A stretch of 64,000 nucleotides of DNA, taken from positions 268,012-332,011 of the forward strand of contig CAVQKE010000005.1 of assembly GCA_963713045.1 (NCBI GenBank). Direction: 5' to 3'. The translations under genes and the position numbers were made by a program. This DNA is from an uncultured delta proteobacterium. Its GTDB lineage: Bacteria; Myxococcota; Myxococcia; Myxococcales; Myxococcaceae. Shown piece by piece: positions 28,409 through 54,853 of the stretch (positions are counted from its first letter, which is position 1; each line of letters begins with the position of its first letter). The notes beneath the pieces are model-generated. The model saw nothing but the letters and a program-made list of their open reading frames with translations. It ran no database searches and had not been told where the DNA came from.

Positions 28409-30178
28409 TTGTCACTGCCTCCCGGCACGCCAGTCGGTCGCTACGTCGTCCGCCGGAAAATCGCTGAGGGCGGAATGGCAGAGGTGTACCTAGCGTCAGC
28501 GAAAGGGCCGGCGGGATTCACCAAGGACGTGGTCATCAAGCGCGTCAGGCCGGTGTTGGTGGCTGACCCTGGCTTCGTAAAGATGTTCGTCTCCGAAGCT
28601 CAGCTCGCCAGTCAACTGAACCACCCGAACATTGTTCAGACTTTCGATTTTGACCTGCATGGTGACAGCTACTACCTGGCCATGGAGTACGTGCATGGCA
28701 AATCCTTAGCCGAGGTCCTGGCTCGTGCCGGAGGAGCGGGACTCAATCCCGTGCTCATTGCGCAGGTTGGGCTCGAAATCGCTCGGGGATTGGCGCACGC
28801 CCACCGCCTTGAACTTGTCCATCGTGACGTCTCGCCGCACAACATCCTCGTGTCGTTTGAAGGCGCGGTGAAGCTGACAGACTTTGGAATCGCTAAGAGG
28901 GCCGACCATGCATCGAACAGCGGAATGCTCAAAGGCAAGTTCGCTTACATGGCGCCAGAGCAAGCGCGAGGTGAACCGGTCGACGCGCGGAGTGACATCT
29001 TCTCGCTCGGCATCATCCTTTGGGAGATGCTGACCGGGCGGCGACTTTTCGAAGGGGAGAGCGACCTCGCGCTGCTCCGTGCGGTTCAGCAGGGGCCCAT
29101 CGAACTACCCTCAGGGCTGAACCCCCTTTGCGATTCCGAGTTGGAGAGCACCCTGATGCGCGCACTGGACCGAGAACCGGGCGCCCGGTTCCAGACGGCC
29201 GAGGAATTGGAGCGATGCCTATTCCAATACGTGATTGGTCACGCGCGAACCTCTGAGGACACCAGTCTCGGTGCCCTGATGCGCGGTCTCTTTTCAGAGG
29301 AGGTCGGGACAGCCGAGCAGTCGGGAAGAGAGCCGCTCCTTCTGACCCCGAGCAGGGAGAGTCCGGGCAAGGAATCGACCACCGGGCGCACGACGCCTAG
29401 CCGCCGGCGCCGACGCTCGCGCGTGTTGGGGATGGGAACCGTCGTCATCCTCTGCATTGGCGCGCTGGTGGTGACGGTTGGCCCCTCAAGCGCGCAGCGC
29501 GTGCCGGCGAACGCAAGCCCCAGCCTCGGCTTGCAGGCCCCTCTGGTGGACCTGGCTGCGTGGCTGTCGCTTTCTGAATTGTTGCCCTGGCCGGTGGCTT
29601 TGGTTGCCCTTCTCACAGGCGCTTTCCTCCTCGTTGCCGGAGGTGGAAAGGCGTTCCGAGTGATTGCTTCACCGCTCGGTGCCTTCCTCGGGTGGCTTCT
29701 TGGTGAGGCTCTGGCGGCTCCCTTAGGACTCGTCGGTTACGAGGGAGTCCTCGGCCTCAGCCTGGCCGTCTTGCTCTTCGCTGCCGGTCTGTTTGCGCCA
29801 GCAGTCATGGTGGCCATCGCTTTAGGGGTGCCGGTGGGGCTCGGCTTCGGTGTCCTGCTCGGAACGCCAAACTTTCTGATTGGCTTCCTCCCGGCTGCGG
29901 CGCTTGGAGGAGCAATTGCCGGGTTTCTCCACCGCCCTCTGCGCGCCTTGGTGGCGACGACGGCGGGTGTGGCGATCGGGATGCTCGGTCTCCTCCGGCT
30001 GCTACAGGAGGTCCCGTTTGCTGCTGAGCTGCGCCGAACGCACCCGGGATGGCTTCTCGGTGTAGCCGCGACCTTTGCGTTTGGCGGCGCATTGCTTCAA
30101 CTCGCGAGATGGACGCCGTCCGGCGAGCCTTCGGCCGGTGCCCCGGACCAGGGTCTGGAAAGCGATGGCATGCCGTAG
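28409..30178 (+). CDS. Ser/Thr protein kinase fused to a polytopic C-terminal membrane domain
   Basis: TTG start. GRYVVRRKIAEGGMAEVYLA, VVIKRV, HRDVSPHNILV, DFGIAK and YMAPEQ are kinase motifs. About 7 hydrophobic segments follow residue 340. Confidence 0.88.
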   Translation: MSLPPGTPVGRYVVRRKIAEGGMAEVYLASAKGPAGFTKDVVIKRVRPVLVADPGFVKMFVSEAQLASQLNHPNIVQTFDFDLHGDSYYLAMEYVHGKSLAEVLARAGGAGLNPVLIAQVGLEIARGLAHAHRLELVHRDVSPHNILVSFEGAVKLTDFGIAKRADHASNSGMLKGKFAYMAPEQARGEPVDARSDIFSLGIILWEMLTGRRLFEGESDLALLRAVQQGPIELPSGLNPLCDSELESTLMRALDREPGARFQTAEELERCLFQYVIGHARTSEDTSLGALMRGLFSEEVGTAEQSGREPLLLTPSRESPGKESTTGRTTPSRRRRRSRVLGMGTVVILCIGALVVTVGPSSAQRVPANASPSLGLQAPLVDLAAWLSLSELLPWPVALVALLTGAFLLVAGGGKAFRVIASPLGAFLGWLLGEALAAPLGLVGYEGVLGLSLAVLLFAAGLFAPAVMVAIALGVPVGLGFGVLLGTPNFLIGFLPAAALGGAIAGFLHRPLRALVATTAGVAIGMLGLLRLLQEVPFAAELRRTHPGWLLGVAATFAFGGALLQLARWTPSGEPSAGAPDQGLESDGMP

Positions 30179-33820: not shown

Positions 33821-33964
33821 ACCGGTTCCGGTCGCCATGCGAGCCCCCCCGCATTTCGGCCCACGCTTCACAGCTGGTGAGCACCCGCTTGCTGCATTCT
33901 TGCCGCCAGGCCTCCGGGCAAGTGGAAGCATCGGGCTGGCACCAATGGGCTGAAAGGCATCGGG

Positions 33965-34855
33965 GTGAACGGCAGCTTTATGAATTCGATTCCCAGCGAG
34001 GTGATTTGGTCGTATCTCGTCGGTGGAGCCGTTCTTGCAATCTGGCTGGTCGTCACTGTTTTCCGCGACGATTGGTCAAAGGCGCGAGGCGTCGACAAGC
34101 TGATTCTGCTTGGGCCAGTTTTTTACGCGGCGCCACTCGCGGCCTTTGGCACTGAACATTTCACGCGGACGGAGGCCATTGCGTCCATCGTGCCAGCGTG
34201 GATTCCGTGGCATACATTTTGGGCGTACTTCATCGGTGCTTGTTTTATCGCAGCCGGTGTCAGCCTCGCGACGAGGATTCAGACGCGTCTTTCGGCGAGC
34301 TTGCTCGCTTTGACGTTTTTCTTGTTCGCAGTGCTGATGGACGCCCCAGCTTGGGCACAAGACCCGGGCGATCGGATTGCACTTACGCTCGCGCTACGCG
34401 AACTGTCCTTCAGCGGAGGCGCTCTAGCGCTGGCAGCCAGCCTCACCGAGCCGCCGCGCAAGCCTGGCAGGGACATCCTTGCGACGATGGCGCGGTACTT
34501 CGTTGCAATTCCGGTGCTGGTTTTCAGCTTCGAGCAATTCATGCACGGCGACTATGTTCCCGGCGTTCCGCTGAACCTGGTGACGCCGGAGTACGTTTAC
34601 GGACACGCAATTTGGACGTACCTGGCGGCCCCGGTTTACGCACTCGCGGGTACCCTCTTGCTTGTTGGCAAGAAAGTCCGCGCAGCGGCAACGTGGCTTG
34701 GCTTGACAGTGCTTTTCTTGGAGTTGTTCGTCTATCTGCCGATCGCAGTCGTGCAACGCGCCAGCCTGGACAACGGTCTCAATTACTTGGCAGACACCCT
34801 GATGTTTTGCGGAGCCGTTTTGCTGCTCGCGGGCGCCATGCCGCGCGAACCATAG
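33965..34855 (+). CDS. polytopic membrane protein (about 8 TM), function unknown
   Basis: 296 aa with regularly spaced hydrophobic segments. The real ATG is possibly at 33980 (MNSIPSEV). Confidence 0.6.
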   Translation: MNGSFMNSIPSEVIWSYLVGGAVLAIWLVVTVFRDDWSKARGVDKLILLGPVFYAAPLAAFGTEHFTRTEAIASIVPAWIPWHTFWAYFIGACFIAAGVSLATRIQTRLSASLLALTFFLFAVLMDAPAWAQDPGDRIALTLALRELSFSGGALALAASLTEPPRKPGRDILATMARYFVAIPVLVFSFEQFMHGDYVPGVPLNLVTPEYVYGHAIWTYLAAPVYALAGTLLLVGKKVRAAATWLGLTVLFLELFVYLPIAVVQRASLDNGLNYLADTLMFCGAVLLLAGAMPREP

Positions 34856-34992
34856 CGTGGAGAAATCGCCACGCCGGTGCTCGCCCGGCTTCGGAAGTTG
34901 GGCCTAAATGCGTAGCACTCGACTGCGCGCCGATAGCCTCAGAGTGACGGAGCCCTTCCCCTCCGAGCGAGTCGAAAATCTCAGTCGCTCGC

Positions 34993-42994: not shown

Positions 42995-43093
42995 GGGGAC
43001 CTCCTCCAATTTCCAAGGCGAGCTGCACCGAAGAGAACGGGGCATGGTAGCCCCAGCCTGCTGGGGTGAACATCCCTACGAGCCCCCGCCGCC

Positions 43094-43577
43094 TTAGAAG
43101 GGTTTGGAAAGCTGACGGAATAACGTTTCGACCAGGGCCGCGTCACCGTTCTTCATGTCAATGGTGCCTCGACCGTAGAACCAGCCCTCCTTCTCCGTCA
43201 GCAGAAACGGCGCTACGGACCAGTCCTCCGGCTTGGCCTCGACAACATCGAGATGTCCGAGAAAGAGGATCGGCCTCCCCTGGCCCTTACCGCGGGAGTG
43301 GACGACGAGGTTTCGCTTGGTAGGGCAGTCAGCCGGGGCGATGGTCACCGAGTCCTTGGCAGCAAACCCGGCGGCCAAAAGCCGGCGTTCAATTGCTTTT
43401 GCAGCTTCGGTGGAGCCTTTCTCGTGGGTGGTGTTGATCTCAATCAGTTCCCTAAAGATTTCGCGGGCGAGTTGTTGGTCCGCAGACGGTGGAAGTGGTC
43501 GCGGCGCTGCAGCCGAGGAGTTGGAGGCCAGGCACAAACAGCAGAACGGAGGCTCCGGAAATGACGAAGCGGCTCAC
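43094..43577 (-). pseudogene. M20 family metallopeptidase remnant (5' third only, plus one frameshift)
   Basis: LFLGHLDVVEAKPEDWSVAPFLLTEKEGWFYGRGTIDMKNG is the M20 N-terminal catalytic region, and the ORF stops after ~147 aa. A lipoprotein signal (VSRFVISGASVLLFVPGLQLLGC from GTG 43577) is in a different frame. Confidence 0.7.
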
Positions 43578-43732
43578 GAAATCCTGACACACGTTGCCCC
43601 CCTCGAAAATCAGTTGCCTGCAGCGGCCAGACAGTAGCCAACGTTGAGCCAGCGCGCGCCCTCGCGGGCCGCGTACACCCCAGTGATTGAGTCCGCTCGC
43701 GCCGCCTACCACTCCAAAATCGTTGCGCATTG

Positions 43733-44205
43733 CTTCGGTCTTCTTCCCAGGCCGCGGTGTCGGGCTCTCGCTCTCCGGTATTTCTCCACGCGCCGCGGCC
43801 GCGGCGGTTCTGCTGCTCGCGCGTCCAAGGGGCATACTCCGAGCCGACTCACTTCCAGGCTCGCCGGGGCGCAGCGCGTGCTCGGGCCCGACTGCGCGTC
43901 CTGAGCGGCCGGTCACTCGCGGATGACCCGCATTCCCTTCCAGCCAACGACACGGCGGACGAGCGAAAGCATCTGCTCCTCCCTGCCCGCCGGCACGGTG
44001 TACCTCGCATAGAAGCCCCACCCGCGTCGTTCGTCGACCCAGGCATACGCGACGTCGAGCCGGTCGGCCGCGAGACGGATCTGCAGCTCCTCGCAGGCGA
44101 ACCGCAACTGACCGTCGGAGCACGTCCCGAGCATCGCGGCGGGAAGGGGCACGCCGCGGGTCGGGTACCGCTCGAGGGCCTTCCGGAGGAAGTCCACGTC
44201 AATCG
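43733..44205. repeat. dispersed repeat R2, copy A (3' two-thirds of the small secreted-protein gene plus ~180 bp downstream flank)
   Basis: Aligns by eye with 53546-53967, with a few short indels in the non-coding part. Confidence 0.85.
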
Positions 44206-44398
44206 GCCGACCAGTCGACACGTGGAGAACGACCACGACCGCTGTCGGGTCCTCGGGGTCGTGCGCCGCGACGTTCGCGGAGGGGACCTCGATCAGGACC
44301 CATCCCGGCGGCACCACCCAGACCACTTCCTGCCGAAAGTCCTGGCCTCCGTCGGCAACCGATAGAGCCGCGAGCACCAGTAGGCAGGCTCCATTCAC
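43913..44398 (-). CDS. small secreted protein of unknown function (161 aa)
   Basis: MNGACLLVLAALSVADGG is signal-like. A truncated paralogue is at 53675..53959. Confidence 0.65.
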   Translation of the reverse strand: MNGACLLVLAALSVADGGQDFRQEVVWVVPPGWVLIEVPSANVAAHDPEDPTAVVVVLHVSTGRPIDVDFLRKALERYPTRGVPLPAAMLGTCSDGQLRFACEELQIRLAADRLDVAYAWVDERRGWGFYARYTVPAGREEQMLSLVRRVVGWKGMRVIRE

Positions 44399-44687
44399 CT
44401 TAAGCAGTTTCGCGACGATTCAGCGCGCGTGCAACCCGGGAGCCCACCGTTCGGTGGTACACCGCAGTCGGAAGTGGCACCTGTGATGGAGTGCGGTTCA
44501 GAGGCGCGGTCTCAATCTTCTTGGCTTCGAGGAGGTTGGGGCCCTGGTCCTTCCGGTAAAATCTGCTGGTCAGTTCCAGGTCCGGTAACAGCCGCCCACG
44601 GATTAGATGGTCTGGGGGCATAGTTGTGGGTCTGCGGCGCGGGTTGGTCTGGACACCCAAACCGTAGCCGGGGTCACCCTGGGGTAG

Positions 44688-44769
44688 GCGCCTGGCGATT
44701 TCCCGGCGCACCCGTGTGACTTGGCTCAAGGACGCTGGCCTGCGTCGGCCTCGCAAATCCGGGGCGTGA
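44688..44769 (+). pseudogene. remnant of the last ~27 codons (Fis-type HTH) of a sigma-54 activator
   Basis: Translates RLAISRRTRVTWLKDAGLRRPRKSGA*, versus RLGISRRTLVTWLKDSGLPRPRKSGA* at the end of 50250..51980. I saw no activator-like sequence upstream of 44688. Confidence 0.8.
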
Positions 44770-44776
44770 GCTGTGC

Positions 44777-44807
44777 TGCGCTAATTGCGCAGCTGAGTCG
44801 TTGCGCA
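44777..44807. promoter_or_regulatory. candidate enhancer (UAS): TGCGC-N5-GCGCA palindrome plus a second TGCGCA 16 bp downstream
   Basis: TGCGCtaattGCGCAgctgagtcgtTGCGCA lies about 75-95 nt upstream of the -24 element. It is conserved at 51988-52018. Confidence 0.4.
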
Positions 44808-44867
44808 GATTGAGCAGCGCCGGCGGACCTGGCCGGGGAACGAGCCGAATTAACGGGCCACCTCGCC

Positions 44868-44882
44868 TGGCACTGGCATTGC
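44868..44882 (+). promoter_or_regulatory. sigma-54 (-24/-12) promoter
   Basis: TGGCACtggcaTTGC is an exact match to TGGCAC-N5-TTGC, 126 nt upstream of ATG 45009. Confidence 0.8.
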
Positions 44883-45008
44883 TCGCCCCTCATCACTCAC
44901 AACGCGAGAAGCCGAAACCGGGGGCGGGGGACGGTTAGGCCGCACGAGGGGCGCGGTGACCGCCCGCCTTATCTCGGCGCTCGCAAGACAGGCAAGGGAG
45001 AAGGGCAC

Positions 45009-46469
45009 ATGCATTCGACAGAATCATCAGCAGTGTACGGGCGTAAGACAGCGCTGAGCGGCTTCAATCCCAGCTGGCTTCTCGAGATGGCATTGGTCGC
45101 CGCACTCGCCATTTCGGTGCCCGCTTCGGCCGACACCGACAGCCACAGACTCTGGGGGACGGCAAACCATATGGTGACAGCACCGGCGGCATTTCTCTTA
45201 ACAGCGACTCCAAGTCCAACCGAGCTACCCGCTTCAGTACTCAAGCTGGCCCGACCGATGACTAACTTGCCAGCCTCGACTGCCGCGAGCACAGGCCACA
45301 AGGCATACGGGGGCAAGCACGGTGGCGGCGGTAGCGGCGACAGCGCCGCAGGCGTGCCGGGAATTACCAGCATTCAGAACTGGACCGGGCAATTCACGGA
45401 GCCCGGCTATGACAACTATGGCAACCCGCAAAGCGTCTGGCCCTACGCGATAGTGGGTCAGCCGCCCGAGAAGGGAGGGACCACGACCATCCATGCCCCG
45501 CTCATCCCCGTCATCGTCGACTTGCTGGACGCGAACGGCAACGTGGCCACGAGCAGTCAGGGTGTCCCTCTCACCTTCGACCCGACCCAAGTCGTCAAGC
45601 CGGTGCTGGATTCACCTGTGTTTCAACCCTGGCCCTACTATTCCGGCTTCACCCAGTTTGTGGACGGCCTTCAGCGCGCTGAATTTTGGGACCGTCTCCG
45701 GGACGACGACAAGGGACAGGATTGCGAGGATGGTTGGCATACGCTGTTTGAGCCGCACCGCAAGCCCACGCAACGGATGCAGATTCCGTATGGCTCTTGG
45801 TACGTGGTGCTGAACGCCGATGGGAGTTGCTGCACCGCCGCGCTGGTGGATGTTGAGGCCTTCCTCGTCCAGCTCTACCCGTCCACCGTCCCGCAAACCC
45901 TCGGTACAGTTATCGGGTATGCAGAGCTAACCGGAGCGATGACGACCAAGGACATGACGACGTTTCTCTTCAACGACGTCTATCTGTACGGTGGAAACGT
46001 CTCAAATTGCTGCTACCTTGGTTTCCATGACGTCGACCTCGAGGCGGACGCGCAGGGCAACTTTACCCTTTGGTACGTGTTCTCCTATGCCAGCTGGATT
46101 GGCAACACCTTCTTCACGGGTGGCTTCCAGGACATCACCGCCCTGAATCACGAGCTCTCCGAGGCGACGAACGACCCCTTTGTCCAGATCATCCCCTACA
46201 ACTGGACTCCCTGGTACCTGTCGCCCTCGGGGCTTTGCCAGAACAACCTCGAATCCGGTGACGCCATCGAGGGCCTCAACACAACACCGACGTTTGCCCT
46301 CCAGATGAACGGCCGAACGTACCACCCGCAAAACATGGCCATGTTTCCGTGGTTCGCGTTCGAGTCGCCGTCTCCGGCCTTGAAGCACACCTATAGCTTC
46401 CCGGACGAGACGACGCTCACCACGCTCTCGCCCCCGAACTTGCTGCCCAACTGCGTCCCCGGGCCCTAG
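45009..46469 (+). CDS. secreted protein of unknown function (486 aa), sigma-54-dependent
   Basis: Leader MHSTESSAVYGRKTALSGFNPSWLLEMALVAALAISVPASA is shared with 52221..53372. The mature part has no motif I recognise. It contains paired cysteines (SCC, NCC, LC, NC). Confidence 0.75.
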   Translation: MHSTESSAVYGRKTALSGFNPSWLLEMALVAALAISVPASADTDSHRLWGTANHMVTAPAAFLLTATPSPTELPASVLKLARPMTNLPASTAASTGHKAYGGKHGGGGSGDSAAGVPGITSIQNWTGQFTEPGYDNYGNPQSVWPYAIVGQPPEKGGTTTIHAPLIPVIVDLLDANGNVATSSQGVPLTFDPTQVVKPVLDSPVFQPWPYYSGFTQFVDGLQRAEFWDRLRDDDKGQDCEDGWHTLFEPHRKPTQRMQIPYGSWYVVLNADGSCCTAALVDVEAFLVQLYPSTVPQTLGTVIGYAELTGAMTTKDMTTFLFNDVYLYGGNVSNCCYLGFHDVDLEADAQGNFTLWYVFSYASWIGNTFFTGGFQDITALNHELSEATNDPFVQIIPYNWTPWYLSPSGLCQNNLESGDAIEGLNTTPTFALQMNGRTYHPQNMAMFPWFAFESPSPALKHTYSFPDETTLTTLSPPNLLPNCVPGP

Positions 46470-46479
46470 AGTAGACGTC

Positions 46480-46523
46480 GAGGACCCGCTTGGACGGAGT
46501 ACGGGCGCGGTCCAAGCGTCCTC
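46480..46523 (+). terminator. possible hairpin terminator without a U-tract
   Basis: GAGGACccGCTTGGAC-N13-GGTCCAAGCGTCCTC (14 bp stem with a 2-nt bulge) starts 11 nt after the stop. Confidence 0.35.
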
Positions 46524-46730
46524 TGGCCACGAGAGGCCCCGGCATCGTCCCCGCGAAGACCGTGTTGGGCCGTTGGGTGGAAGGGTCGCACCAAGGCGCC
46601 GCTCCGCGCCTCCCCCGAGGCCCCCTCGGCCATCCCATGTACGCGGGCGTTGTGCAGGTGACGGGGCCAAGTCCACCGCCGAAATCGCGCGTTGCGTCAG
46701 CGGTGTAGTTGAGCCCGTTGTCGGAGAGCC

Positions 46731-49700
46731 TCACCGCGCTGGGTTTGAGGCGGCAAGGCGCTGCCCATCGAGTGCCTCGCGTGCGAAGCGAGCGATGCGG
46801 AAGAACTCCCTGGATTTTGCCTCACGTTCCAACCTGACTAACCGCGCGTGGCCTTGAGTGGGATGCGCTCGGAGTTCCACTTCACCCAGTGCAAGGGCGA
46901 TCTCGAAAGCCATTGCCATCGCGCCCTGGCTTTCCGCATTGGCCAACGCAACACGGAGCTCTGCAGTGGACTTGGCGGTCCCACCCAGAGCGGCCCGGAT
47001 GCGCATGAGGTAGACGTTCGCGAGACTTCGCTCGACGTACCCGCCCAGCTGCCGCGCCTCCGCGAGCGCTTCGACGGCTAGTTTTTCTCCTCCGGGAAGG
47101 TCGCCGGCGAGGTATCGGCACTTCGCGAGCCGTAGATTCCTTGCGAGCACCTGAGCGGTACCCGCTCCATCCGGGGGAGGATGTTGGGTTAGGCAATCCA
47201 CGCCTTCTTGCGGACGCCCTTCATCACAGGCTATCTCGCAAAGGATAGCTTGGAAGCTCGGCGCATCCGACAGAAGGCTTGAAAGCTGCTGCATTCCGAT
47301 GACCTTTTCCAAGCTCTGCCGTGCTTCTGGCAGTCGGTCCTGCTCTCTCAAGGCAGCAAACTCTATTCCGACGGCTGGGTCATCGATTCCCTCCTGATGA
47401 TGCGAAGGGTCGATTCGCAACAGATGGAGGGCATTCCGCACGCCCCCCATGTCTCCCATCTGCAGCGCCAAGTCGGCTTTTCCCTTCTGGTAGAAGGCGC
47501 CCGGCCCCTCGTCCATGGCCTCTGACTCGGACAAGCTCTCCTGCAGTTTCGCAGCCGCTCGCTTGTAGTCGCCAGAGTGGATCAGACTCCCTGCCTCTGC
47601 GTTCAGAACCTCCCGTAGGGCCCGATGATTGCCGAGCTTGCGGAGTAGCGCGGCATTCTCCTCAAGCGCCTTTCGCACCGTGCTCGTCGGAAGGTATTGT
47701 ATCATCAAAAATGCTCGCCAATTCTGGGCCAGAGCGAGCGTCGGCAAATCGCCAATCTCCTTTAAGAGGGCAACCGCCTGGTCGAATGGGCCCATCGCCT
47801 CAGCTCCGCGGCCCTTCCCTTGCCAGAGCATCCACGCCTCAACGAGGTAGGCATCGGCCGCCTCGCCTCGAGCCCCGAGTGCCTTTGCACGAGCCTTCAG
47901 TCGTGCAACTAGCTCCTCGGCGTGTTTGAAATCGCCCAGTTGCCAAGCGTTGAAGGCCTCTGCACCCTCGACACGCGAGTCGGCCTGGGCACTCGGGCTG
48001 TGCTCCCGGAGGCGGCCGAGAATGGCCGCCCCAGTCTTGGGCGGAGCCTCGCTCACGATGCGGATTGCCAGCTCGACATCGTCTGGTGTGGCGTCGAAGA
48101 GGGCAGTCAGGGCCTCCGTTCCCTTTTCAGGCTCGGGACCTAGGCTCAATATTCTCCCCTCGGTTTCCGCGAGCTGTCGCGGCGTGAGGCCGCCTGGACG
48201 CGCGCGAATTCGGTCGGCGACCTCTCGCGCCTTTTTCTTGTTTCCCTCCAGGTCCCAAATCTCGCCGAGACGGCGTTGGGCATCCATGAAGCTCCCGTCG
48301 GTCGCAAGTGCAGCCTGGAAATAACTCCAGGCGTTTTCGTATTCGAAGCTCCTTAGACGCACGAGGCCTTGCGCATAGGCGCGCGCGGCGGACAGGTTTC
48401 GGGGTCGGACGGCCGCCAGTGCAGTCGCCTGGCTCTGCGAAAGAGAAACGCCCAGCTTCTGGCGGAGGCGTTCGGCGAGGCTGGAGGCTTTGTCGGCCCA
48501 GGCCTGTCCACTCTCGCCAAGGTCCTCTTCGAAGGAGGCAAGCTCCCGCCCCGAGGCGCCGTCAATCATTTTCAGGGAAAGCCCGACGGACGCCGGATTT
48601 TCCGCCGCCGGCTTCAACGTCCCGTAGATGAGGACATCCGCGACAAGGAGGCCCTGCATCCGTGTCTGCACGGTTTCCTCGGAGACGGCGTTCTCAGAAA
48701 CTCCGAGTGAGCGCCGGACCTGTACGACTCTGTCGCCGGGGACGACGCGCAGTGAAGTTTCCGCCGCTGCGAGCTCCCGCCCGAGGTCTTCGGCAACGGC
48801 TGTCGGAAGCCACGCCGACTCGGCGGACACCAACTCGTTGCGAAAGCCCAGCAGGGCAACCGCCCGTCGGAGGGTCGAGGCGACGGTGGTTCGGGAGGGC
48901 TTTGTCGGGCGAAGGGTAGGAAGCTTCCCGGCGACAGAGAAAGCGGCGAGCACCGCCGCAAGCAGGACGGCGCCGACGGAAGCCCAGCGCGGCCAGCGTC
49001 GACGCGGCCGCTCGAGCTCCGGGAGGATGTCCAAAGCGCTCTTGAAGCGCCGCTCCGGCTCCCGGGCCAGGCAGCGTAGGACCGTGCTGCTCCATCTCCC
49101 GTCGAGTCCCGGCGTGGTCGCCTCGGGGCTCGGGGGCGCCTCCCTCAGGCGCTTAGCAGCCGTGACGAGCGGCGTATCGCCGGTAAAGGGCAGCTTGCCC
49201 GTTACCATCTCGTACAGGACGACGCCCAGCGCGTAGATGTCCGTAGCCTTTGTCACCGGCTCACCGGAGACTTGCTCCGGCGCCATGTACTCAGGGGTTC
49301 CGAGGATGCCGTTACCCCCCGTCAGCGGCTCGCTCGCCGCGTCCGTGCTGCGAGCGTGAAGCGCCAGCGCAATGCCGAAGTCCGTGATGACGACACGGGC
49401 GGATGAGGTCGACTCACCCGAGCCTTCTCCGCTGGCGACGAGCATTACATTGCCGCTCTTGAAGTCTCGGTGAATGACACCTTCGGCATGGGCCGCCGCG
49501 AGCCCGTCGCACAGCTGCCGCACCAGCGGGAGTGCCTCGGCTGTGGTCAGCCGCCCCGCCCGCGCGAGGCGTTGGCTCAGGGTCTCTCCGTCCAAGAGTT
49601 GCATCGTGAGGAAGTGAATGGGCACCCCGGCCGCGGTCGTCCCGTCATAGAGCTCGTAGACGCGGCACACGTTGGGGTGGCTCACCCGACGGGCGAGCAA

Positions 49701-50120
49701 CACTTCGCGCCGGAAGCGCTCCATGGCCGTCGCGTCGGTGGCGATGCGGCCCCGTATCACTTTGAGCGCCACCCCTGAACGCAGCTTGACGTCACTCGCT
49801 TCGTAAACGGCCCCCATCCCGCCCTGGGCGATGAAGCGGAGAATCGTGAACCGGCCAGCGAGCAACTCGCCAGGCGTCAACCGCGGGTTGTCGGCGTCCT
49901 CGACACAGGCCAAAGCCCGGGAACCCGTGCTCGACTCCGGCTCCAAGCCAGCCGGCTTCGGGAGAAGCAACGTCGACTCGTCGGGCGTTTGACGAGCGGC
50001 GCCGCGAGCTCCCAACGCGGGGTTCGCGTCTTCAACGCCGGCGACTTTATCGACGTGGCTGTCCCCCTCACCACCCATGCCTGTGCACAGTACCTGAAAG
50101 GTCTCAGTGGGACCCGTCAT
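46731..50120 (-). CDS. Ser/Thr protein kinase with a transmembrane segment and a large C-terminal TPR-like domain
   Basis: 1129 aa uninterrupted. GRFTILRFIAQGGMGAVYEA, VALKVI, HRDFKSGNVML, TDFGIA and GTPEYMAPEQ are kinase motifs. TM segment WASVGAVLLAAVLAAFSVAG. The C-terminus is helical-repeat rich. Confidence 0.9.
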   Translation of the reverse strand: MTGPTETFQVLCTGMGGEGDSHVDKVAGVEDANPALGARGAARQTPDESTLLLPKPAGLEPESSTGSRALACVEDADNPRLTPGELLAGRFTILRFIAQGGMGAVYEASDVKLRSGVALKVIRGRIATDATAMERFRREVLLARRVSHPNVCRVYELYDGTTAAGVPIHFLTMQLLDGETLSQRLARAGRLTTAEALPLVRQLCDGLAAAHAEGVIHRDFKSGNVMLVASGEGSGESTSSARVVITDFGIALALHARSTDAASEPLTGGNGILGTPEYMAPEQVSGEPVTKATDIYALGVVLYEMVTGKLPFTGDTPLVTAAKRLREAPPSPEATTPGLDGRWSSTVLRCLAREPERRFKSALDILPELERPRRRWPRWASVGAVLLAAVLAAFSVAGKLPTLRPTKPSRTTVASTLRRAVALLGFRNELVSAESAWLPTAVAEDLGRELAAAETSLRVVPGDRVVQVRRSLGVSENAVSEETVQTRMQGLLVADVLIYGTLKPAAENPASVGLSLKMIDGASGRELASFEEDLGESGQAWADKASSLAERLRQKLGVSLSQSQATALAAVRPRNLSAARAYAQGLVRLRSFEYENAWSYFQAALATDGSFMDAQRRLGEIWDLEGNKKKAREVADRIRARPGGLTPRQLAETEGRILSLGPEPEKGTEALTALFDATPDDVELAIRIVSEAPPKTGAAILGRLREHSPSAQADSRVEGAEAFNAWQLGDFKHAEELVARLKARAKALGARGEAADAYLVEAWMLWQGKGRGAEAMGPFDQAVALLKEIGDLPTLALAQNWRAFLMIQYLPTSTVRKALEENAALLRKLGNHRALREVLNAEAGSLIHSGDYKRAAAKLQESLSESEAMDEGPGAFYQKGKADLALQMGDMGGVRNALHLLRIDPSHHQEGIDDPAVGIEFAALREQDRLPEARQSLEKVIGMQQLSSLLSDAPSFQAILCEIACDEGRPQEGVDCLTQHPPPDGAGTAQVLARNLRLAKCRYLAGDLPGGEKLAVEALAEARQLGGYVERSLANVYLMRIRAALGGTAKSTAELRVALANAESQGAMAMAFEIALALGEVELRAHPTQGHARLVRLEREAKSREFFRIARFAREALDGQRLAASNPAR

Positions 50121-50249
50121 GCCAACACGCGGAAAGAATTCGTGCTCCCTTCATGGGAGGCGACGGGGACAGTGTCCTGAGCGCCCCTCAATCAACGACA
50201 GCGGCGCGGCAGAGAAATGCTGTAGCTTCCCGGGCTTCTGGGTGTCGCC

Positions 50250-51980
50250 ATGCAATCGGAACCTGACCCGGAGACCCTGCGGCTGGCACGGGCGGTGGAA
50301 GAGCCGCCGCACGGCCTGTGCGTGTTGGCTCTCTGGGACGAGGAGCATGTCACCTTCCCACTCCCCGACCGGGGAAGCGTCACCGTCGGGCGGACCGAGG
50401 GCGTGGACGTCCGGCTCGGGGACCAGGCCATCTCTCGTCAGCACATCAAATTCCATGTCAGTGAGCTGCTGCACGTGGAGGACCTGAGCAGCGCCAATGG
50501 CACGCGCGTCCGCGGACGTTTGTTGAAGTCCGGCGAGACTGTCGAGGTGAACCCCGGCGACACCATCGAGCTCGGGCGGACGCTGCTCGTCATCCAGCGC
50601 TCGGCTGGTCCGACGCGTTCATTTCGCATTTACGCGCACGACTATTTCGACGCACGGGTCGACGACGAGTGCGCCCGGGCAGAGCGCGGCGGGGTGTACT
50701 TTGTTGTGGTGCGAGTGCACGACGGCGGTCTGCCCCGTGCACTGGTACAGCAGCGTTTGGCGGCAGCGGTCCGGCCGGGCGACGTCGTGGCCGCCTACGG
50801 GCCGTCCGAGCACGAGCTCCTGTTGGTGGACTGCGAAGCTCGCCTGGCAGAGCAGCGCGTAGCATCGCTGCTCGCGTCGCTTCAGCCACTGTCTCCGTCC
50901 GCAGCGGTTGGCTTTGCGTGCAGCCCGCGCGATGGCCGCACCTCAGCCTCGCTGCTCGAGGTGGCCAATGCAGCCGTCCGGGGCATCAACCTCGACCAGC
51001 AGACGCCCCCCGTCGGATTGTCCGATGGGACGATGGAAAGTCTTCGGCGCGTTGTCGAGCGCATCGCCGGGGGCTCCATCAGCGTTCTGATCACCGGGGA
51101 GACAGGTGTCGGCAAAGGGCTGTTAGCAAAGGAGCTGCACCGCAAGTCCTCGAGAGCGTCGAATGCCTTCGTGGCGCTCAACTGCGCTGAGCTTCCGGAG
51201 TCCCTGCTCGAAGCAGAACTCTTTGGCTACCAGAAGGGCGCCTTCACTGGAGCAGTTCAGGCCAAGGCTGGACTCATCGAAACAGCGCATGGGGGGACGC
51301 TGCTCCTCGACGAGATTGGCGACATGCCACTTGCGACGCAGGCAAAGTTGCTTCGGGTGCTCGAAGACCACGAGGTGCGTCGCATTGGGAGCTTGCATCC
51401 ACGACACGTCGACTTGCGCGTCGTGGCGTGCACCAACCGGGACCTCAAAGAGGAGTCCGAGCGCGGCGCTTTCCGGTGGGACTTGTATTTTCGGCTCGCT
51501 GGAATCTCGTTGGCGGTGCCCCCTTTGCGGGAGCGTGCCGCAGAGATTGAAGGACTAGCACGTGCGTTCCTCGAGCAAGCCGGACATTCCGGAGGGCGAG
51601 CGAGCGCCCCAATCCTCGCCCCCGAGGCCTTGGCGGCGCTGCATCGCTACTCGTGGCCGGGCAACGTCCGCGAGCTGCGCAATGTCATCGAGCGAGCAGT
51701 GCTGCTTTCTCAAGACGGAGTCATTCGGTCCGAGCACCTCCCGGTCGACCGCCTGCGCACCACCGTGTACCCCGCTTCCGTCCCAGGGCCGAGCGCTCGC
51801 GGTGCCGAGTCCGCGGAAGGCAAGCTAGACGACAGCAAGCGGCAGCGGATTCTGGAGGCACTGGCGACCTGTGGCGGGAATCAGAGCCGCGCCGCGAAGC
51901 GCCTGGGGATTTCCCGGCGCACCCTTGTGACGTGGCTCAAGGACTCTGGGCTGCCTCGGCCTCGCAAATCCGGGGCATGA
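50250..51980 (+). CDS. sigma-54-dependent transcriptional activator (bEBP) with an N-terminal FHA domain and a degenerate GGDEF-like middle domain
   Basis: FHA region: GSVTVGRTEGVDVRLGDQAISRQHIKF...SSANGTRVRG. AAA+ region: GETGVGKG, GAFTGA, LLLDEIGDM. C-terminal HTH: NQSRAAKRLGISRRTLVTWLK. Confidence 0.92.
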   Translation: MQSEPDPETLRLARAVEEPPHGLCVLALWDEEHVTFPLPDRGSVTVGRTEGVDVRLGDQAISRQHIKFHVSELLHVEDLSSANGTRVRGRLLKSGETVEVNPGDTIELGRTLLVIQRSAGPTRSFRIYAHDYFDARVDDECARAERGGVYFVVVRVHDGGLPRALVQQRLAAAVRPGDVVAAYGPSEHELLLVDCEARLAEQRVASLLASLQPLSPSAAVGFACSPRDGRTSASLLEVANAAVRGINLDQQTPPVGLSDGTMESLRRVVERIAGGSISVLITGETGVGKGLLAKELHRKSSRASNAFVALNCAELPESLLEAELFGYQKGAFTGAVQAKAGLIETAHGGTLLLDEIGDMPLATQAKLLRVLEDHEVRRIGSLHPRHVDLRVVACTNRDLKEESERGAFRWDLYFRLAGISLAVPPLRERAAEIEGLARAFLEQAGHSGGRASAPILAPEALAALHRYSWPGNVRELRNVIERAVLLSQDGVIRSEHLPVDRLRTTVYPASVPGPSARGAESAEGKLDDSKRQRILEALATCGGNQSRAAKRLGISRRTLVTWLKDSGLPRPRKSGA

Positions 51981-51987
51981 GCGGCGT

Positions 51988-52018
51988 TGCGCTAAATGCG
52001 CAGCTGAGTCGTTGCGCA
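51988..52018. promoter_or_regulatory. candidate enhancer (UAS), copy B
   Basis: TGCGCtaaatGCGCAgctgagtcgtTGCGCA has the same geometry as copy A. Confidence 0.4.
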
Positions 52019-52078
52019 GATTGAGCAGCGCGGGCGGCCCTGGCCGCGGAACGACCCGATTTAACGGGGCGCCTCGCC

Positions 52079-52093
52079 TGGCACTGTCGTTGC
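52079..52093 (+). promoter_or_regulatory. sigma-54 (-24/-12) promoter
   Basis: TGGCACtgtcgTTGC lies 98 nt after the activator stop and 127 nt upstream of ATG 52221. Confidence 0.8.
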
Positions 52094-52220
52094 TCGCCCG
52101 TCATTGCTCACAGCGCGAGAAGCCGAAATCCAAGGGAGACGCTTCGCACAATGCGGGGACCGCTGTCGGATTCAGCCCGATCTTTTTCGGCGCTCGCAAG
52201 ACAGGCAGGGAGAACGGCAC

Positions 52221-53372
52221 ATGCATTCGACAGAATCATCGGTTGTGTACGGACGTAAGACGGCGCTGAGCGGCTTCAACCCCAGCTGGCTTCTCGAGAT
52301 GGCTTTGGTCGCCGCGCTCACCACTTCGGTGCCAGCTTCAGCTGAAGCCGACAGCCGATTTATCGAATTCGACGTCCCGGCCGCAGGCACCGCTGCCTAC
52401 CAAGGCACCACCGGCATCGGCATCAACGGACGCGGCGAGACAATTGGCTACTACTTGGACGCGAATTTTGTGTACCACGCCCTCCTGCGCGCATGCGACG
52501 GAACCATCACCTCGTTCGACCCCCCGGGCAGCCAGGTCACCCTCGCCTATGGCCTCACGGAGCAAGGGGTCATCGCGGGAATCTTTCATGATGCGAACGA
52601 CGTTCATCACGGTTTCATCCGGGCTGCCGACGGCAGCTTCACCGACGTAAACGCGCCGGGCGCGGCTACGGGTGCAGGCCAGGGAACTCTTGCCTGGAGC
52701 ATCGACGCTCGCGGAGAGGTCTTCGGAACCTACTTTGACGAAAACGGAGCTTGGCATGGCTACCTACGCGCGCCGGCCGGCACCTTCACGACGTTTGACG
52801 CGCCAGGGGCAGGCACCGGTGCTGGCCAGGGCACCTACGCCTCCAGCTTCGACGGCAACAACGCACAAGAGGCAGTCGGCTCGGTTGTAGATGCCAACAA
52901 CGTGGGTCACGGCTTCCGACGCGCGGCCGCCGGCGAGTTCACGACGTTTGACGCGCCAGAGGCAGGCGCTGGTGCCGGTCAGGGGACGTTTGTCGACGGC
53001 GTCAACGCCGAGGGGGTCATCATCGGAGGGGCGATTGATGCGGACAACGTGGCCCACGGCTTTCAGCGGGCGGCCGACGGCAAATTCAGCAGTTTTGACG
53101 TCGCGGGGGCGGGTACAGCTGCCGGCCAGGGCACATTTCCCCAGAACATCAACCGCGAGGATGCCATCACTGGATACACCGTTGATTCGAACAATGCGGC
53201 TCACGGCTTTTTACGCGCTCCTGACGGCAGGACCGTCACATTCGACGCTCCGTCCGCGGGCACGGGTGCCGGTCAGGGGACATTTGCAACAAGCAACAAC
53301 GCCGAGGGCGCCATCACGGGAGCAGTCACGGACGCGAACAACGTGAGCCACGGCTTCCTGCGCAGAGAGTAA
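52221..53372 (+). CDS. secreted seven-repeat beta-propeller-like protein (same repeat family as 25427..26308), sigma-54-dependent
   Basis: ATG at 52221 inside track ORF 52104..53372. Seven ~46-aa units FT(T/S)FDAPGAG(T/A)GAGQGT...G.I.G...DANNV.HGF(L/R)R..(D/A)G. Confidence 0.8.
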   Translation: MHSTESSVVYGRKTALSGFNPSWLLEMALVAALTTSVPASAEADSRFIEFDVPAAGTAAYQGTTGIGINGRGETIGYYLDANFVYHALLRACDGTITSFDPPGSQVTLAYGLTEQGVIAGIFHDANDVHHGFIRAADGSFTDVNAPGAATGAGQGTLAWSIDARGEVFGTYFDENGAWHGYLRAPAGTFTTFDAPGAGTGAGQGTYASSFDGNNAQEAVGSVVDANNVGHGFRRAAAGEFTTFDAPEAGAGAGQGTFVDGVNAEGVIIGGAIDADNVAHGFQRAADGKFSSFDVAGAGTAAGQGTFPQNINREDAITGYTVDSNNAAHGFLRAPDGRTVTFDAPSAGTGAGQGTFATSNNAEGAITGAVTDANNVSHGFLRRE

Positions 53373-53382
53373 GTTCGGCGCG

Positions 53383-53443
53383 TCGCCAAGGGACTGGCTT
53401 CGGAGGTCGCCATTCGTCGCGTTGCCGAAGCGCCCCTTGGCGA
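53383..53443 (+). terminator. long imperfect hairpin after the propeller gene (possible terminator)
   Basis: TCGCCAAGGG...CCCTTGGCGA are perfect 10-bp arms enclosing an inner GGCTTCG/CCGAAGC stem. It starts 11 nt after the stop. No U-tract. Confidence 0.35.
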
Positions 53444-53545
53444 ACCCGCGGGCCTCCTGTTTTGTTATTATTGGGTCAGCAGATTGCCATAGACGCCTTC
53501 CAGTCCCGTATTCCTCGCCCTTCTTGTCGCCTAGCTCGTTCGATT

Positions 53546-53967
53546 TGCTTCGTTTTCTTCCAGGCAGCGGTTTCGGGCTCTCGCTTCTCCGGTATTTCTC
53601 GACGCGCGGCGGTTCTGCTGCTCGCGTGTCCAAGGGCGGCTGCTCGGGCGCGACTGCGCGTCCTGAGCGGCCCGTCACTCGCGGATGACCCGCGTTCCCT
53701 TCCAGCCAACGACACCCCGGACGAGCGAAAGCATCTGCTCCTCCCTGCCCGCCGGCACAGTGTACCTCGCATAGAAGCCCCACCCGCGTCGTTCGTCGAC
53801 CCAGGCATACGCGACGTCGAGCCGGTCGGCCGCGAGACGGATTTGCAGCTCCTCGCAGGCGAACCGCAAGTGACCGTCGGAGCAAGTCCCGAGCATCGCG
53901 GCGGGAAGGGGCACGCCGCGGGTCGGATACCGCTCGAGGGCCTTCCGGAGGAAGTCCACGTCAATCG
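53546..53967. repeat. dispersed repeat R2, copy B (truncated)
   Basis: See 43733-44205. Homology ends abruptly after ...GTCAATCG. Confidence 0.85.
53675..53959 (-). pseudogene. 5'-truncated paralogue of the 161-aa secreted protein (lacks signal peptide and ~65 N-terminal residues)
   Basis: (V)DFLRKALERYPTRGVPLPAAMLGTCSDGHLRFACEELQIRLAADRLDVAYAWVDERRGWGFYARYTVPAGREEQMLSLVRGVVGWKGTRVIRE is nearly identical to residues 67-161 of 43913..44398. Confidence 0.75.
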
Positions 53968-54418
53968 TCGCCGAGGCTGTCGAGGACTATCTGCACCCTT
54001 CATGACCGGGGCGGCAGTCAAACCGGCCCGCCTCGGTGAGGTCCTGGGCAACTTTGTTGAGGATGAAAGTGGCCCGTTAGGAGTATCTGTCGTACCGCAT
54101 TGTCAGTTGATTCCCGGGCAGTGCAGGACCCCTTAAGGCCGAGGCGGTCGATGCTGCCCTTTGGGGCACGGCTTGCTTCAGATATCCGCATGAGCCCTTT
54201 CGTGTGGCTACTCGCCCTCACAGTCACTGCAAATCCCCGGCGGACAGTCTCGCTGTCGGATGTCCTGAGGCTTGATGGGGTTGCCTTTCGCTGGAGGACG
54301 ATTCCTGCGACGAAATACGGGCAGTGTTTTGGTCCATCGCCCTGGCCTGTTGGCGTAAGAGACGGGGCATGGTCCCGACATAAATAAATCACTAGCACCA
54401 TTATGGATTCTTCGCCTT

Positions 54419-54853
54419 ATGCTTCTATGGCTGACAATTCTGTATGGTAGCGCCCTCCTCCGAACTTTGTATTTTCGACCGGTTCAAGGGGACGTAGCCG
54501 CCGAGGAATACCGAGCCACTGCTTTGCTACTGCGCAGTGGCCTGGCACTTTCATATTTCTTAGCTAAAATATTTATGCTCTTTGGGACCCTGAGCGGCGT
54601 GGTTGGGGCTATACTGCTAGTTCTTCGTAAGAATGCGGGGTTCTTGCTATTGGTCGTTGCCTTTCCACTCCTCTGCCTTGCCGCGCGATACAACACACCA
54701 GAACAGGGGTATCCGGATCTTCAAGACGTCGATGCGTCGCTGCTCTGGTATTGCAGCTGTGCTTGGTGGGGAGCGGTGATTATCTATGCTCGGCTTCAGC
54801 GGCGCGTCTTATTTTGCGGATCGGACGGGGCAGAGCAGGGATACGCAAGGTGA
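54419..54853 (+). CDS. small membrane protein in an AT-richer islet
   Basis: 144 aa with about 4 hydrophobic segments. Codon usage is clearly AT-richer than the window average. Confidence 0.5.
   Translation: MLLWLTILYGSALLRTLYFRPVQGDVAAEEYRATALLLRSGLALSYFLAKIFMLFGTLSGVVGAILLVLRKNAGFLLLVVAFPLLCLAARYNTPEQGYPDLQDVDASLLWYCSCAWWGAVIIYARLQRRVLFCGSDGAEQGYAR

Follow-up and report, generated by a model that had tools for sequence, protein, structure and literature searches.

The kinase, activator and cargo genes

The window analysed here comprises 64,000 nt of an uncultured delta proteobacterium of the Myxococcaceae (assembly GCA_963713045.1, contig CAVQKE010000005.1, positions 268,012 to 332,011 of the forward strand). 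A gene on the reverse strand (46731–50120) codes for a Ser/Thr protein kinase whose C-terminal region is rich in TPRs (Pfam Pkinase 1.6e-40 and TPR), and divergent from it lies the gene of a sigma-54 activator (bEBP; 50250–51980, forward strand), in which Pfam recognizes FHA, Sigma54_activat (3e-63) and HTH_8 domains and which carries a Walker A motif at residue 283 and the GAFTGA motif at residue 330. As all of these elements are present the bEBP looks competent, and the kinase is presumed to provide the input to its FHA domain. It is the sole bEBP within the window, in agreement with the preliminary description of this DNA, and an rpoN gene or RpoN box was not found in the same 64 kb. No characterised ortholog could be identified, as NCBIfam gave only sub-threshold matches to NorR, NifA, AtoC and similar proteins, and a search of genome contigs with the bEBP returned generic AAA+ matches of 40–55% identity and no orthologs.

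The bEBP gene is followed by the gene for a predicted secreted protein of 383 aa, named cargo 2 (52221–53372, forward strand). The AlphaFold model (pLDDT 88.5) confirms the proposed 7-blade beta-propeller, and a structure search of the PDB retrieved the CylK propeller and the Photorhabdus PLL/PHL lectins with E values from 1e-9 to 1e-6. All propeller homologs carry an ordinary signal peptide at the position of the leader, so that cargo 2 is its original carrier.

Cargo 1 is encoded on the same strand, in a native ORF of 432 aa (45171–46469) that starts at M55 of a fused ORF of 486 aa (45009–46469). It had been regarded as an orphan, but its homologs number more than 500; they are about 430 aa long and align from residue ~55 of the fused protein. 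No Pfam, NCBIfam or PDB sequence match was obtained for cargo 1, and a fold search gave nothing significant, with the TACE catalytic domain as best match (E=0.1). Cargo 1 is a conserved protein of secreted type that would have been extracytoplasmic already before the rearrangement described below. Beyond codon 48 there is no similarity between cargo 1 and cargo 2, so the mature proteins are indeed unrelated. The 431-aa and 444-aa genes that follow the propeller homolog P0136 (L122) were also compared with cargo 1, as a relationship would have connected both cargo families, and are not related to it.

Anatomy of the duplicated unit

The regions 44688–45144 and 51899–52356 (both forward strand) align colinearly in 466 columns, of which 84.8% are identical (blastn E=5e-145), and this confirms the duplication noticed earlier; a third copy was not found in the window. 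As had been described, the shared block contains an activator tail, a spacer, a sigma-54 promoter, a 5'UTR and the codons of a signal peptide, and a 60-nt patch of the 5'UTR is essentially unalignable between the copies, which are about 90% identical once this patch is set aside.

At the left copy, the activator tail (44686–44769, forward strand; DNA homology from 44688) is a pseudogene fragment consisting of the last 27 bEBP codons and the stop codon, and it shares 91.6% identity with the right copy. A tblastn search of the window with the bEBP matched residues 550–577 only to the left of cargo 1 and found no further activator sequence at the left copy, and an in-frame stop is located just 5' of the tail. 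The assumption of an activator lost from the left copy is probably not correct: this copy more likely never had a full activator, and the duplicated segment started inside the activator 3' end, as is also seen at locus L088 of a related organism, where an independent tandem duplication begins in the last ~22 codons of the activator. Since the candidate enhancer directly follows the activator stop codon, a stub of the activator would be carried along by such duplicates.

The spacer downstream of the tail, which had been called identical over 98 nt, differs at 11 of 97 nt (88.7% identity). It contains two 15-bp dyads of the pattern TGCGC-N5-GMGCA (44777–44791 and 44802–44816 in the left copy, no strand assigned; 51988–52002 and 52013–52027 in the right copy), the left ones centred at about -108 and -83 relative to the inferred start site. 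Transcription would be expected to start about 12 nt 3' of 44881 and, in the right copy, of 52092. On both strands of the 64 kb, six of the seven matches to this pattern, or four of the five distinct sites, fall into the two units, with about two matches expected by chance. We regard the dyads as a candidate enhancer (UAS), an element expected about 80–150 bp upstream at sigma-54 promoters, to which the bEBP would bind. The left promoter, TGGCACTGGCATTGC (44868–44882, forward strand), is an exact TGGCAC-N5-TTGC sequence, and exactly two such matches exist in the 64 kb, namely TGGCACTGGCATTGCT at this position and TGGCACTGTCGTTGCT at 52079–52093. They agree at 13 of 15 positions with both mismatches inside N5, and both contain the -24 GG and the -12 GC at the exact spacing of the consensus TGGCAC-N5-TTGCW. 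These consensus matches, together with an activator of the cognate type nearby, suggest that both promoters depend on sigma-54. At L088 and at the orthologous loci L124–L126 the dyads and the promoter are kept as well. Between left and right, the dyads show no mismatch at specified positions, and for dyads and promoter together none of 24 mismatches falls on the 30 specified positions, all of which are intact in both copies (p=0.029).

The left 5'UTR (44883–45008, forward strand; ~116 nt transcribed) shares 88.6% identity with the right one in its proximal part and 93% in the SD region, where GGGAGAAGGG is found at 44996–45005. The divergent patch (44918–44978) would make up the top of a hairpin whose prediction is not significant, as the 5'UTRs do not fold better than shuffled sequences (z -1.6 and 0.06), and an Rfam scan of 43000–54500 gave no match.

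The last element is a leader of 45 codons, MHSTESSAVYGRKTALSGFNPSWLLEMALVAALAISVPASA|DTDS (45009–45143 in the left copy, forward strand; 52221–52355 in the right copy), with 88.9% nucleotide identity and 40 of 45 identical amino acids. It has the layout of a Sec signal peptide, for which a positive n-region, about 10 or more hydrophobic residues in the h-region and small residues at -3 and -1 are expected: R12 and K13 are found in the n-region, the h-region is LLEMALVAALAI, and A-S-A precedes D42. The predicted signal-peptidase I site is located after A41. The maximum 11-residue hydropathy (KD) of the h-region is 2.6 (left) and 2.0 (right), and AlphaFold predicts a helix for residues 22–32 and 22–35, respectively, followed by a low-confidence linker. 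From these features we infer a cleavable Sec-type signal peptide with cleavage at ASA|D. The homology between both copies does not stop at this site, as had been stated, but continues for four codons.

The left unit ends about 9 nt 5' of the ribosome-binding site of cargo 1, and therefore the leader reads in frame into the complete cargo-1 gene through nine codons of the former 5'UTR (HRLWGTANH; 45144–45170, forward strand). Native upstream DNA of cargo 1 does not survive to the left of the unit.

Direction of copying and selection

Close relatives, whose loci are 86–88% identical, carry the right-hand unit alone, with the kinase, the FHA-type sigma-54 activator, the promoter and the 7-blade propeller. 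At the five orthologous loci (L124–L128) synteny is confined to positions 46731–53518 of the window, and neither cargo 1 nor a second unit adjoins the kinase. Therefore the right copy is the native one, whereas the left one arose by a partial, lineage-specific duplication and is younger than the separation from these relatives. The trio of kinase, bEBP and propeller is kept at all five loci and also near P0156. The MAG that contains L125 also has a homolog of cargo 1 (L001), on another contig, with its own upstream region and without the unit. Compared with the relatives, 26 derived leader substitutions are common to both copies of the window, and about one third of the leader residues differ from the relatives, which indicates fast divergence of this peptide between species.

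With the relatives as outgroup, the substitutions of the left lineage were counted. In the left leader, seven are synonymous and one is nonsynonymous (binomial p=3.8e-4 against neutrality), and the latter falls past the cleavage site, so that all 41 residues of the signal peptide are unchanged despite seven silent substitutions. The left activator tail has four nonsynonymous and no synonymous substitutions; the difference between leader and tail is significant (Fisher p=0.010), although the numbers are small (eight and four events). These opposite ratios make it very probable that the left leader undergoes translation and is constrained, and they mark the tail as a decaying fragment. The signatures of selection thus set the parts that are still important, i.e. 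the dyads, the -24/-12 elements and the leader peptide, apart from the activator tail, which is not.

Taken together, we consider it likely that a 457-bp graft placed the unrelated cargo 1 behind a copy of the enhancer and promoter of the propeller gene and added an in-frame leader that replaces a weak native signal. The native module, which the close relatives share, consists of the TPR Ser/Thr kinase divergent from the FHA sigma-54 activator, followed by the two dyads, the -24/-12 promoter, the ~116-nt 5'UTR and the propeller gene. In this lineage only, the segment that begins 27 codons before the activator stop and extends to propeller codon 45 was copied and joined ~9 nt 5' of the native ribosome-binding site of cargo 1, about 7 kb away. 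Upon a kinase signal received by the FHA domain, the single activator would then switch on cargo 1 in trans as well as the propeller, both in dependence on rpoN and the bEBP, and the signal peptide of the propeller, in frame through the nine former UTR codons, would take over the function of the weak N-terminal signal of cargo 1. Two unrelated proteins are thus probably subject to one switch and carry one export tag.

Alternatively, only the promoter was captured, the leader codons are a passenger and functional cargo 1 starts at its native ATG at 45171 with the native SD. This SD (GGGGGA, 45154–45159) and the ATG are indeed intact, with the same SD-spacer-ATG arrangement as at the loci L001, L003, L004 and L086 of cargo-1 homologs, and all three frames of the 27-nt linker are open, so that an in-frame fusion is not improbable and could by itself be explained by chance. 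We regard this as unlikely, however, as the left leader has a strong SD of its own and is under purifying selection in contrast to the tail, and as the native hydrophobic segment of cargo 1, MVTAPAAFLL, has decayed and gained a proline, in contrast to the intact MLxALVALLVAA of the homologs. Its maximum 11-residue KD of 1.72 is below that of every one of the 28 homologs with a short N-terminus (mean 2.61, minimum 2.05).

The preliminary description had proposed a modular cassette for expression and secretion that has captured different cargos; taken as a system, this would be a dedicated cassette with recurrent captures. In line with this idea, a boundary inside the activator 3' end arose independently at L088, and in close relatives the block of kinase, bEBP and propeller is found in three different surroundings. 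The cargos at L088 are paralogs, however, which makes it an ordinary tandem duplication, and the 64 kb contain just two copies of the unit. Terminal inverted repeats and target duplications are absent at 44688 and 45144, and no recombinase is found among the annotated genes adjoining the unit. Among 1.84 billion representatives no further protein has this leader, and a degenerate DNA motif for GFNPSWLLEMA had no match in 185,579 GTDB representative genomes, a set to which the source genome does not belong. With one capture found, we consider such a cassette very improbable. Some further candidates were rejected: the sole leader match among the 1.84e9 representatives, P0241, is a repetitive protein with a chance match to an internal LSGSNPSW; a supposed third tandem unit at L088 turned out to be the shared downstream flank 3' of paralog B; and the 32 matches of the double-dyad pattern in a metagenome scan were all unrelated, most of them being TTGCGCAGC tandem repeats, with neither a promoter nor a bEBP or cargo gene in their vicinity. 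A leader-only profile search of an index of 5.8 billion proteins gave no candidates, and this search is uninformative as it missed even P0001.

The left copy might also be a dead leftover of a rearrangement, its motifs being intact only due to recency. The decaying activator tail would fit, as would the rearranged surroundings with a truncated M20 gene, D2 repeats and an inverted neighbour, and the left spacer has acquired seven lineage-specific changes versus two in the right one, which points to a possible relaxation on the left spacer. Against this, the copies have diverged by about 11% and still the 30 positions specified in promoter and dyads are free of differences (p=0.03), and the left leader has changed by one amino acid versus seven silent substitutions; hardly any weight can thus be given to a dead relic.

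An assembly artefact, with a chimera or a wrong join at a repeat in the MAG contig, is extremely unlikely. The left junction is known from one MAG contig only, no independent assembly of it was found, an exact look-up of P0001 returned no contig, and the 83-nt exact run of the D2 repeats could mislead a short-k assembler. However, more than 68 differences separate the copies of the unit, which share no exact run above 35 nt, and they are therefore not the collapsed repeat that had been named as a possible artefact. Moreover, the contig would have to be mis-joined twice in a stretch of 460 nt (at 44688 and 45144), and a tail decaying like a pseudogene with no activator sequence upstream fits real evolution and not the intact locus of a foreign strain.

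Outside the pair of units nests a second pair of direct repeats, D2, on the reverse strand. D2-L (43720–44210) covers the 3' part and the downstream flank of a small ORF (43913–44398, 161 aa), and D2-R (53536–53974; ORF 53675–53959, 94 aa) is a truncated copy that begins 18 nt past the right edge of the block kept in the relatives. The core of both is 96% identical (84.6% including indels), and the repeats share an exact run of 83 nt. Homologs of cargo 1 were checked for the small D2 ORF next to them, and it is not conserved there; our attempts to derive a single-event model covering the nested D2 and unit repeats yielded none. The region also contains a truncated M20 gene and an inverted neighbour gene.

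Comparison with known gene remodelling

The arrangement had been considered as not described, but accounts of type III effectors (PMC4278537) and of the lpl units of Staphylococcus aureus (PMC2568036) contain similar reassortments. Terminal reassortment moves a promoter and an N-terminal signal of type III effectors onto unrelated genes (Stavrinides, Ma & Guttman 2006, PLoS Pathog 2:e104, via PMC4278537). This outline is shared by our case, in which non-homologous proteins have in common a 5' block that supplies the regulon promoter together with the N-terminal secretion signal, the recipient has homologs without them, and the chimera would gain both an export route and regulation. In contrast to the effectors with their T3SS signal and hrp box, a predicted cleavable Sec signal and a sigma-54 promoter with enhancer are found here, a fragment of the upstream activator was dragged along, the recipient had a weak signal of its own, and one event is known. 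The unit thus appears to work like this class without being a member of it, given its Sec-type signal, its sigma-54 promoter and a context free of a T3SS. The graft is a one-off event of promoter and leader comparable to terminal reassortment, i.e. a clean case of an already known gene remodelling and not a new system.

In the lpl clusters of tandem paralogs the evolutionary unit is composed of 3'ORF, intergenic region and 5'ORF (Tsuru & Kobayashi 2008, PMC2568036). Here, too, the duplicated piece comprises the 3' end of one gene, the intergenic region and the first codons of the gene that follows, which encode its signal peptide, and the tandem duplication at L088 has the same composition. 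Unlike our case, lpl units are shuffled among homologous paralogs through recombination in a central conserved region; the unit studied here reached a non-homologous gene, and its junction, likewise non-homologous, is in the former 5'UTR of cargo 1.

In mycoplasmas, the variable lipoprotein genes vsp and vlp form multigene families connected with phase variation and site-specific recombination, and their members are nearly identical in the upstream region and the signal peptide but divergent in the mature parts. The common upstream region and signal peptide in front of different mature parts resemble our two genes, which differ from these families in that just two copies are present, a recombinase is absent and the mature parts are not linked by repeats.

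If our account is correct, it provides a dated natural example with an outgroup in which one partial duplication of 457 bp had two effects at once, as it rewired a gene into a sigma-54/EBP regulon and exchanged its export signal. Terminal reassortment would then not be confined to type III effectors but would include proteins exported via Sec and promoters that depend on an enhancer, and a lectin-like propeller and a widespread uncharacterised 430-aa protein would be outputs of one pathway of kinase and FHA-bEBP. It is conceivable, but rather doubtful, that the leader acts as a lineage-specific sorting or partner tag that directs the propeller and cargo 1 to one destination or complex, recruited into a secreted pair controlled by the kinase and the FHA-bEBP, a reading which the fast divergence of the leader between species and the 41 unchanged residues of the grafted copy would fit; in a stronger version, units of enhancer, promoter and leader may be a recurrent vehicle for the expansion of regulon and secretome in Myxococcota.

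FHA-domain enhancer-binding proteins belong to the sigma-54 regulon of Myxococcus (Jelsbak, Givskov & Kaiser 2005, PNAS 102:3010, via PMC6971385). The propeller and the ~430-aa protein are not known as members of this regulon. The activator itself corresponds to the proteins described there, with its FHA, AAA+ (GAFTGA) and HTH_8 domains, its pairing with a Ser/Thr kinase and its host from the Myxococcaceae.

Structure of the duplicated block and its junction with cargo 1

The stretches 44688-45144 and 51899-52356 are colinear, as the preliminary description had it, with 84.8% identity over 466 alignment columns (blastn E ~5e-145). Between the left and the right copy, the activator tail is 91.6% identical, the promoter-proximal UTR 88.6%, the SD region 93% and the 45-codon leader 88.9% (40 of 45 residues); the spacer, initially described as identical, reaches 88.7%, and a patch of ~60 nt in the 5'UTR is effectively unalignable. 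The predicted sigma-54 promoter is the same at 13 of 15 positions with both differences located within the N5 spacer, and exact TGGCAC-N5-TTGC sequences are restricted to these two sites in the 64 kb. Block, leader and activator have no further copy in the 64-kb window. An assembly duplication by a collapsed repeat is excluded, because more than 68 positions differ between the copies and the longest common exact run is 35 nt. A chimeric join at the left copy, whose junction is known from one MAG contig, would require two mis-joins inside 460 nt.

In every propeller homolog examined an ordinary signal peptide occupies the exact position of the block leader, and the first blade begins a few residues after it. 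Homologs of cargo 1, the gene behind the left copy, align to the window protein only from residue ~55. At the DNA level, homology with the right copy ends at 45144, and from ~45150 the window follows the SD-spacer-ATG layout seen upstream of cargo-1 homologs at four other loci, with the native SD at 45154-45159 and the native ATG at 45171, corresponding to M55. Therefore, the block was set before an otherwise complete gene, and the leader ORF runs in frame via nine codons of the former 5'UTR into cargo 1, which gives a fused ORF of leader and native gene (45009-46469).

Cargo 2 (52221-53372) had been described as a 7-blade repeat protein, in line with the seven-bladed beta-propeller of the predicted structure (pLDDT 88.5); among solved folds, the CylK propeller and the Photorhabdus PLL/PHL lectins, which are likewise seven-bladed, come closest to it. 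Cargo 1 is not the orphan it was first taken for, as its family comprises more than 500 proteins of ~430 aa from Myxococcaceae MAGs, Acidobacteriota (e.g., Koribacter Acid345_3119) and metagenomes, in which certain Cys, His and Glu positions are invariant. Neither Pfam nor NCBIfam has a model that matches cargo 1, and fold comparison gave no significant hit. The native part of cargo 1 (45171-46469) has a G+C content of 0.604, below the 0.658 of the window, its identity to the nearest homologs is 63-65% compared with ~86% to relatives for neighbouring genes, and in two relatives (L001, L004) the homolog lies beside TraC/TraG-like conjugation genes; a horizontal origin is possible. A third, distant propeller paralog (25427-26329, minus strand, 300 aa, ~33% identity) carries an ordinary signal peptide and lacks a sigma-54 motif, and another Ser/Thr kinase is encoded nearby (28409-30178, plus strand).

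Origin of the duplication and of the activator stub

The intact activator (50250-51980) combines an FHA domain, a sigma-54 AAA+ domain with GAFTGA and Walker A, and HTH_8; divergent from it lies a Ser/Thr kinase gene (46731-50120, minus strand, 1129 aa, with TPRs). Activator orthologs are at least 90% identical. The five loci of these orthologs in close relatives (L124-L128; two Myxococcaceae MAGs, three metagenome contigs) match the window at 86-88% identity across 46731-53518 only, a range covering kinase, activator, right cassette and propeller, and in none of them does cargo 1 or another cassette adjoin the kinase. In the MAG GCA_052143535.1 the cargo-1 homolog is found on a different contig, adjoining TraC/TraG-like genes and with its own upstream region devoid of a sigma-54 motif. 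As both window leaders have 26 derived substitutions in common relative to the relatives, which lack a second cassette, the comparison indicates that the duplication arose in the window's lineage after its split from these relatives.

A parallel case occurs in a more distant relative, the Logan contig L088, which carries two propeller paralogs in tandem, each with a TGGCAC-N5-TTGCT promoter and dyads, the second following a stub made up of ~22 codons from the 3' end of the activator gene. The shared downstream flank identifies a simple tandem duplication with its left breakpoint inside the activator gene. The duplicated unit is located at 1565-2090, and its left breakpoint falls within ~15 nt of that in the window. 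Block copies are closer within genomes (89.6% and 79.5%) than between them (59-69%); therefore, both duplications were independent or have been homogenised. The candidate enhancer starts only ~8 nt past the activator stop codon, and this proximity likely explains the recurring stub, since duplicates that retain the enhancer would tend to include a piece of the activator. Thus, instead of having lost its activator, as previously proposed, the left copy probably never had a full one.

Maintenance of the grafted leader and proposed regulation

Differences between the copies were polarised with the relatives as outgroup. The left-lineage leader has acquired seven synonymous changes and one nonsynonymous change (binomial p = 3.8e-4 against neutrality), the latter at codon 43, beyond the predicted ASA|D cleavage site. 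In contrast, the left activator tail shows 0 synonymous and four nonsynonymous changes (Fisher p = 0.010 for leader versus tail), and the intact right tail has three synonymous and one nonsynonymous, as expected of a working gene. This contrast indicates that the left tail is a decaying fragment and that the left leader is translated and maintained. Independent support comes from the native hydrophobic N-terminus of cargo 1, MVTAPAAFLLTAT, with a maximum 11-residue hydropathy of 1.72, below all 28 homologs with a short 'MLxALVALLVAA' type N-terminus (mean 2.61, minimum 2.05); such weakening would be expected if the grafted leader took over export. The right, native leader (52221-52355) carries four nonsynonymous and two synonymous lineage-specific changes, among them A34T and I35T, both of which reduce the hydrophobicity of the h-region, and the ancestral peptide is retained in the grafted copy; the original leader appears more relaxed than the graft.

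Two TGCGC-N5-GMGCA dyads per spacer (44777-44791 and 44802-44816; 51988-52002 and 52013-52027) form a candidate enhancer, placed at about -108 and -83 relative to the inferred start site. Six of the seven matches in the window, or four of five distinct sites, lie in the cassettes, with ~2 matches expected by chance, and the relatives as well as L088 have the dyads conserved. The 24 mismatches of 44688-44917 all fall outside the 30 specified positions of promoter and dyads (p = 0.029). The unalignable patch (44918-44978; 52129-52187; ~11880-11930 in L125) forms the apical portion of a predicted GC-rich hairpin with conserved GCCGAA...TTCGGC flanks and a filling that differs among left copy, right copy and relatives; folding energies were not significant versus shuffles, and no Rfam match was obtained.

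We propose that the FHA domain reads a target phosphorylated by the kinase and that the activator would assemble on the dyads and remodel the sigma-54 holoenzyme at -24/-12. As these dyads and the promoter have been kept in the left unit, this single activator would be expected to drive cargo 1 in trans along with the propeller. The Sec-type leader, the same on both products, is predicted to direct export, with R12 and K13 in the n-region, the h-region LLEMALVAALAI and A-S-A at -3 to -1. In the Myxococcus sigma-54 regulon, an FHA-bEBP combined with a Ser/Thr kinase is described as a typical architecture (Jelsbak et al., 2005, cited in PMC6971385), and on another metagenome contig a propeller homolog is flanked by FHA-bEBPs and a 1099-aa kinase.

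Relation to known systems and rearrangements at the locus

A modular cassette that captures different cargos, as suggested in the preliminary description, is not borne out. Non-paralogous capture is known from this window alone, a search of 1.84 billion representative proteins for the leader gave a single match, due to chance, its degenerate motif is absent from 185,579 representative genomes, neither terminal inverted repeats nor target duplications were found at the block ends, and no recombinase is among the annotated genes adjoining the unit. Hence, we see no evidence for a dedicated cassette system. The closest concepts are terminal reassortment of type III effectors, described as recombination of a promoter and N-terminal secretion signal onto unrelated genes (Stavrinides, 2006, as described in PMC4278537), and the '3'ORF-intergenic-5'ORF' evolutionary unit of the S. 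aureus lpl tandem paralogs (PMC2568036). The block works like the former without being a member, as it combines a Sec-type signal with an enhancer-dependent sigma-54 promoter and lacks a T3SS; its unit shape is that of the latter, but the genes it joins are non-homologous.

Several rearrangements must have occurred at this locus, judged from nested repeats, three block contexts and an inverted neighbour gene, and no single model was found to account for them. A second pair of direct repeats (43720-44210 and 53536-53974; core identity 96%, indels of 44 and 9 nt) is nested outside the cassette pair and contains the 3' portion of a small ORF without a family assignment, which is full length on the left (43913-44398, minus strand, 161 aa) and truncated on the right (53675-53959, minus strand, 94 aa). 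The right repeat starts 18 nt past the edge of the block syntenic with the relatives, and just beyond it lies a low-GC (0.54) hydrophobic ORF of 144 aa (54419-54853) with no family match. The 6.8-kb kinase-activator-propeller block (46731-53518) has sharp conserved boundaries at 86-88% identity across L124-L128 and is found in three contexts among close relatives (SSB...HSP33/SelB; 294-aa gene...241-aa/TetR; the window's own), so that it behaves like a relocatable module or lies in a rearrangement hotspot. Adjoining the left outer repeat, an M20/M25/M40 peptidase gene (43094-43537, minus strand) is truncated to its N-terminal 147 aa (Pfam positions 1-47 of 206) and is probably a rearrangement scar. 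In the window, the ortholog (87.7% nt identity) of the 294-aa gene directly beside the kinase in L127 is found at 33931-34857, at a distance of 12 kb and in inverted orientation; this points to an inversion that had one of its breakpoints at the kinase stop codon (46731).
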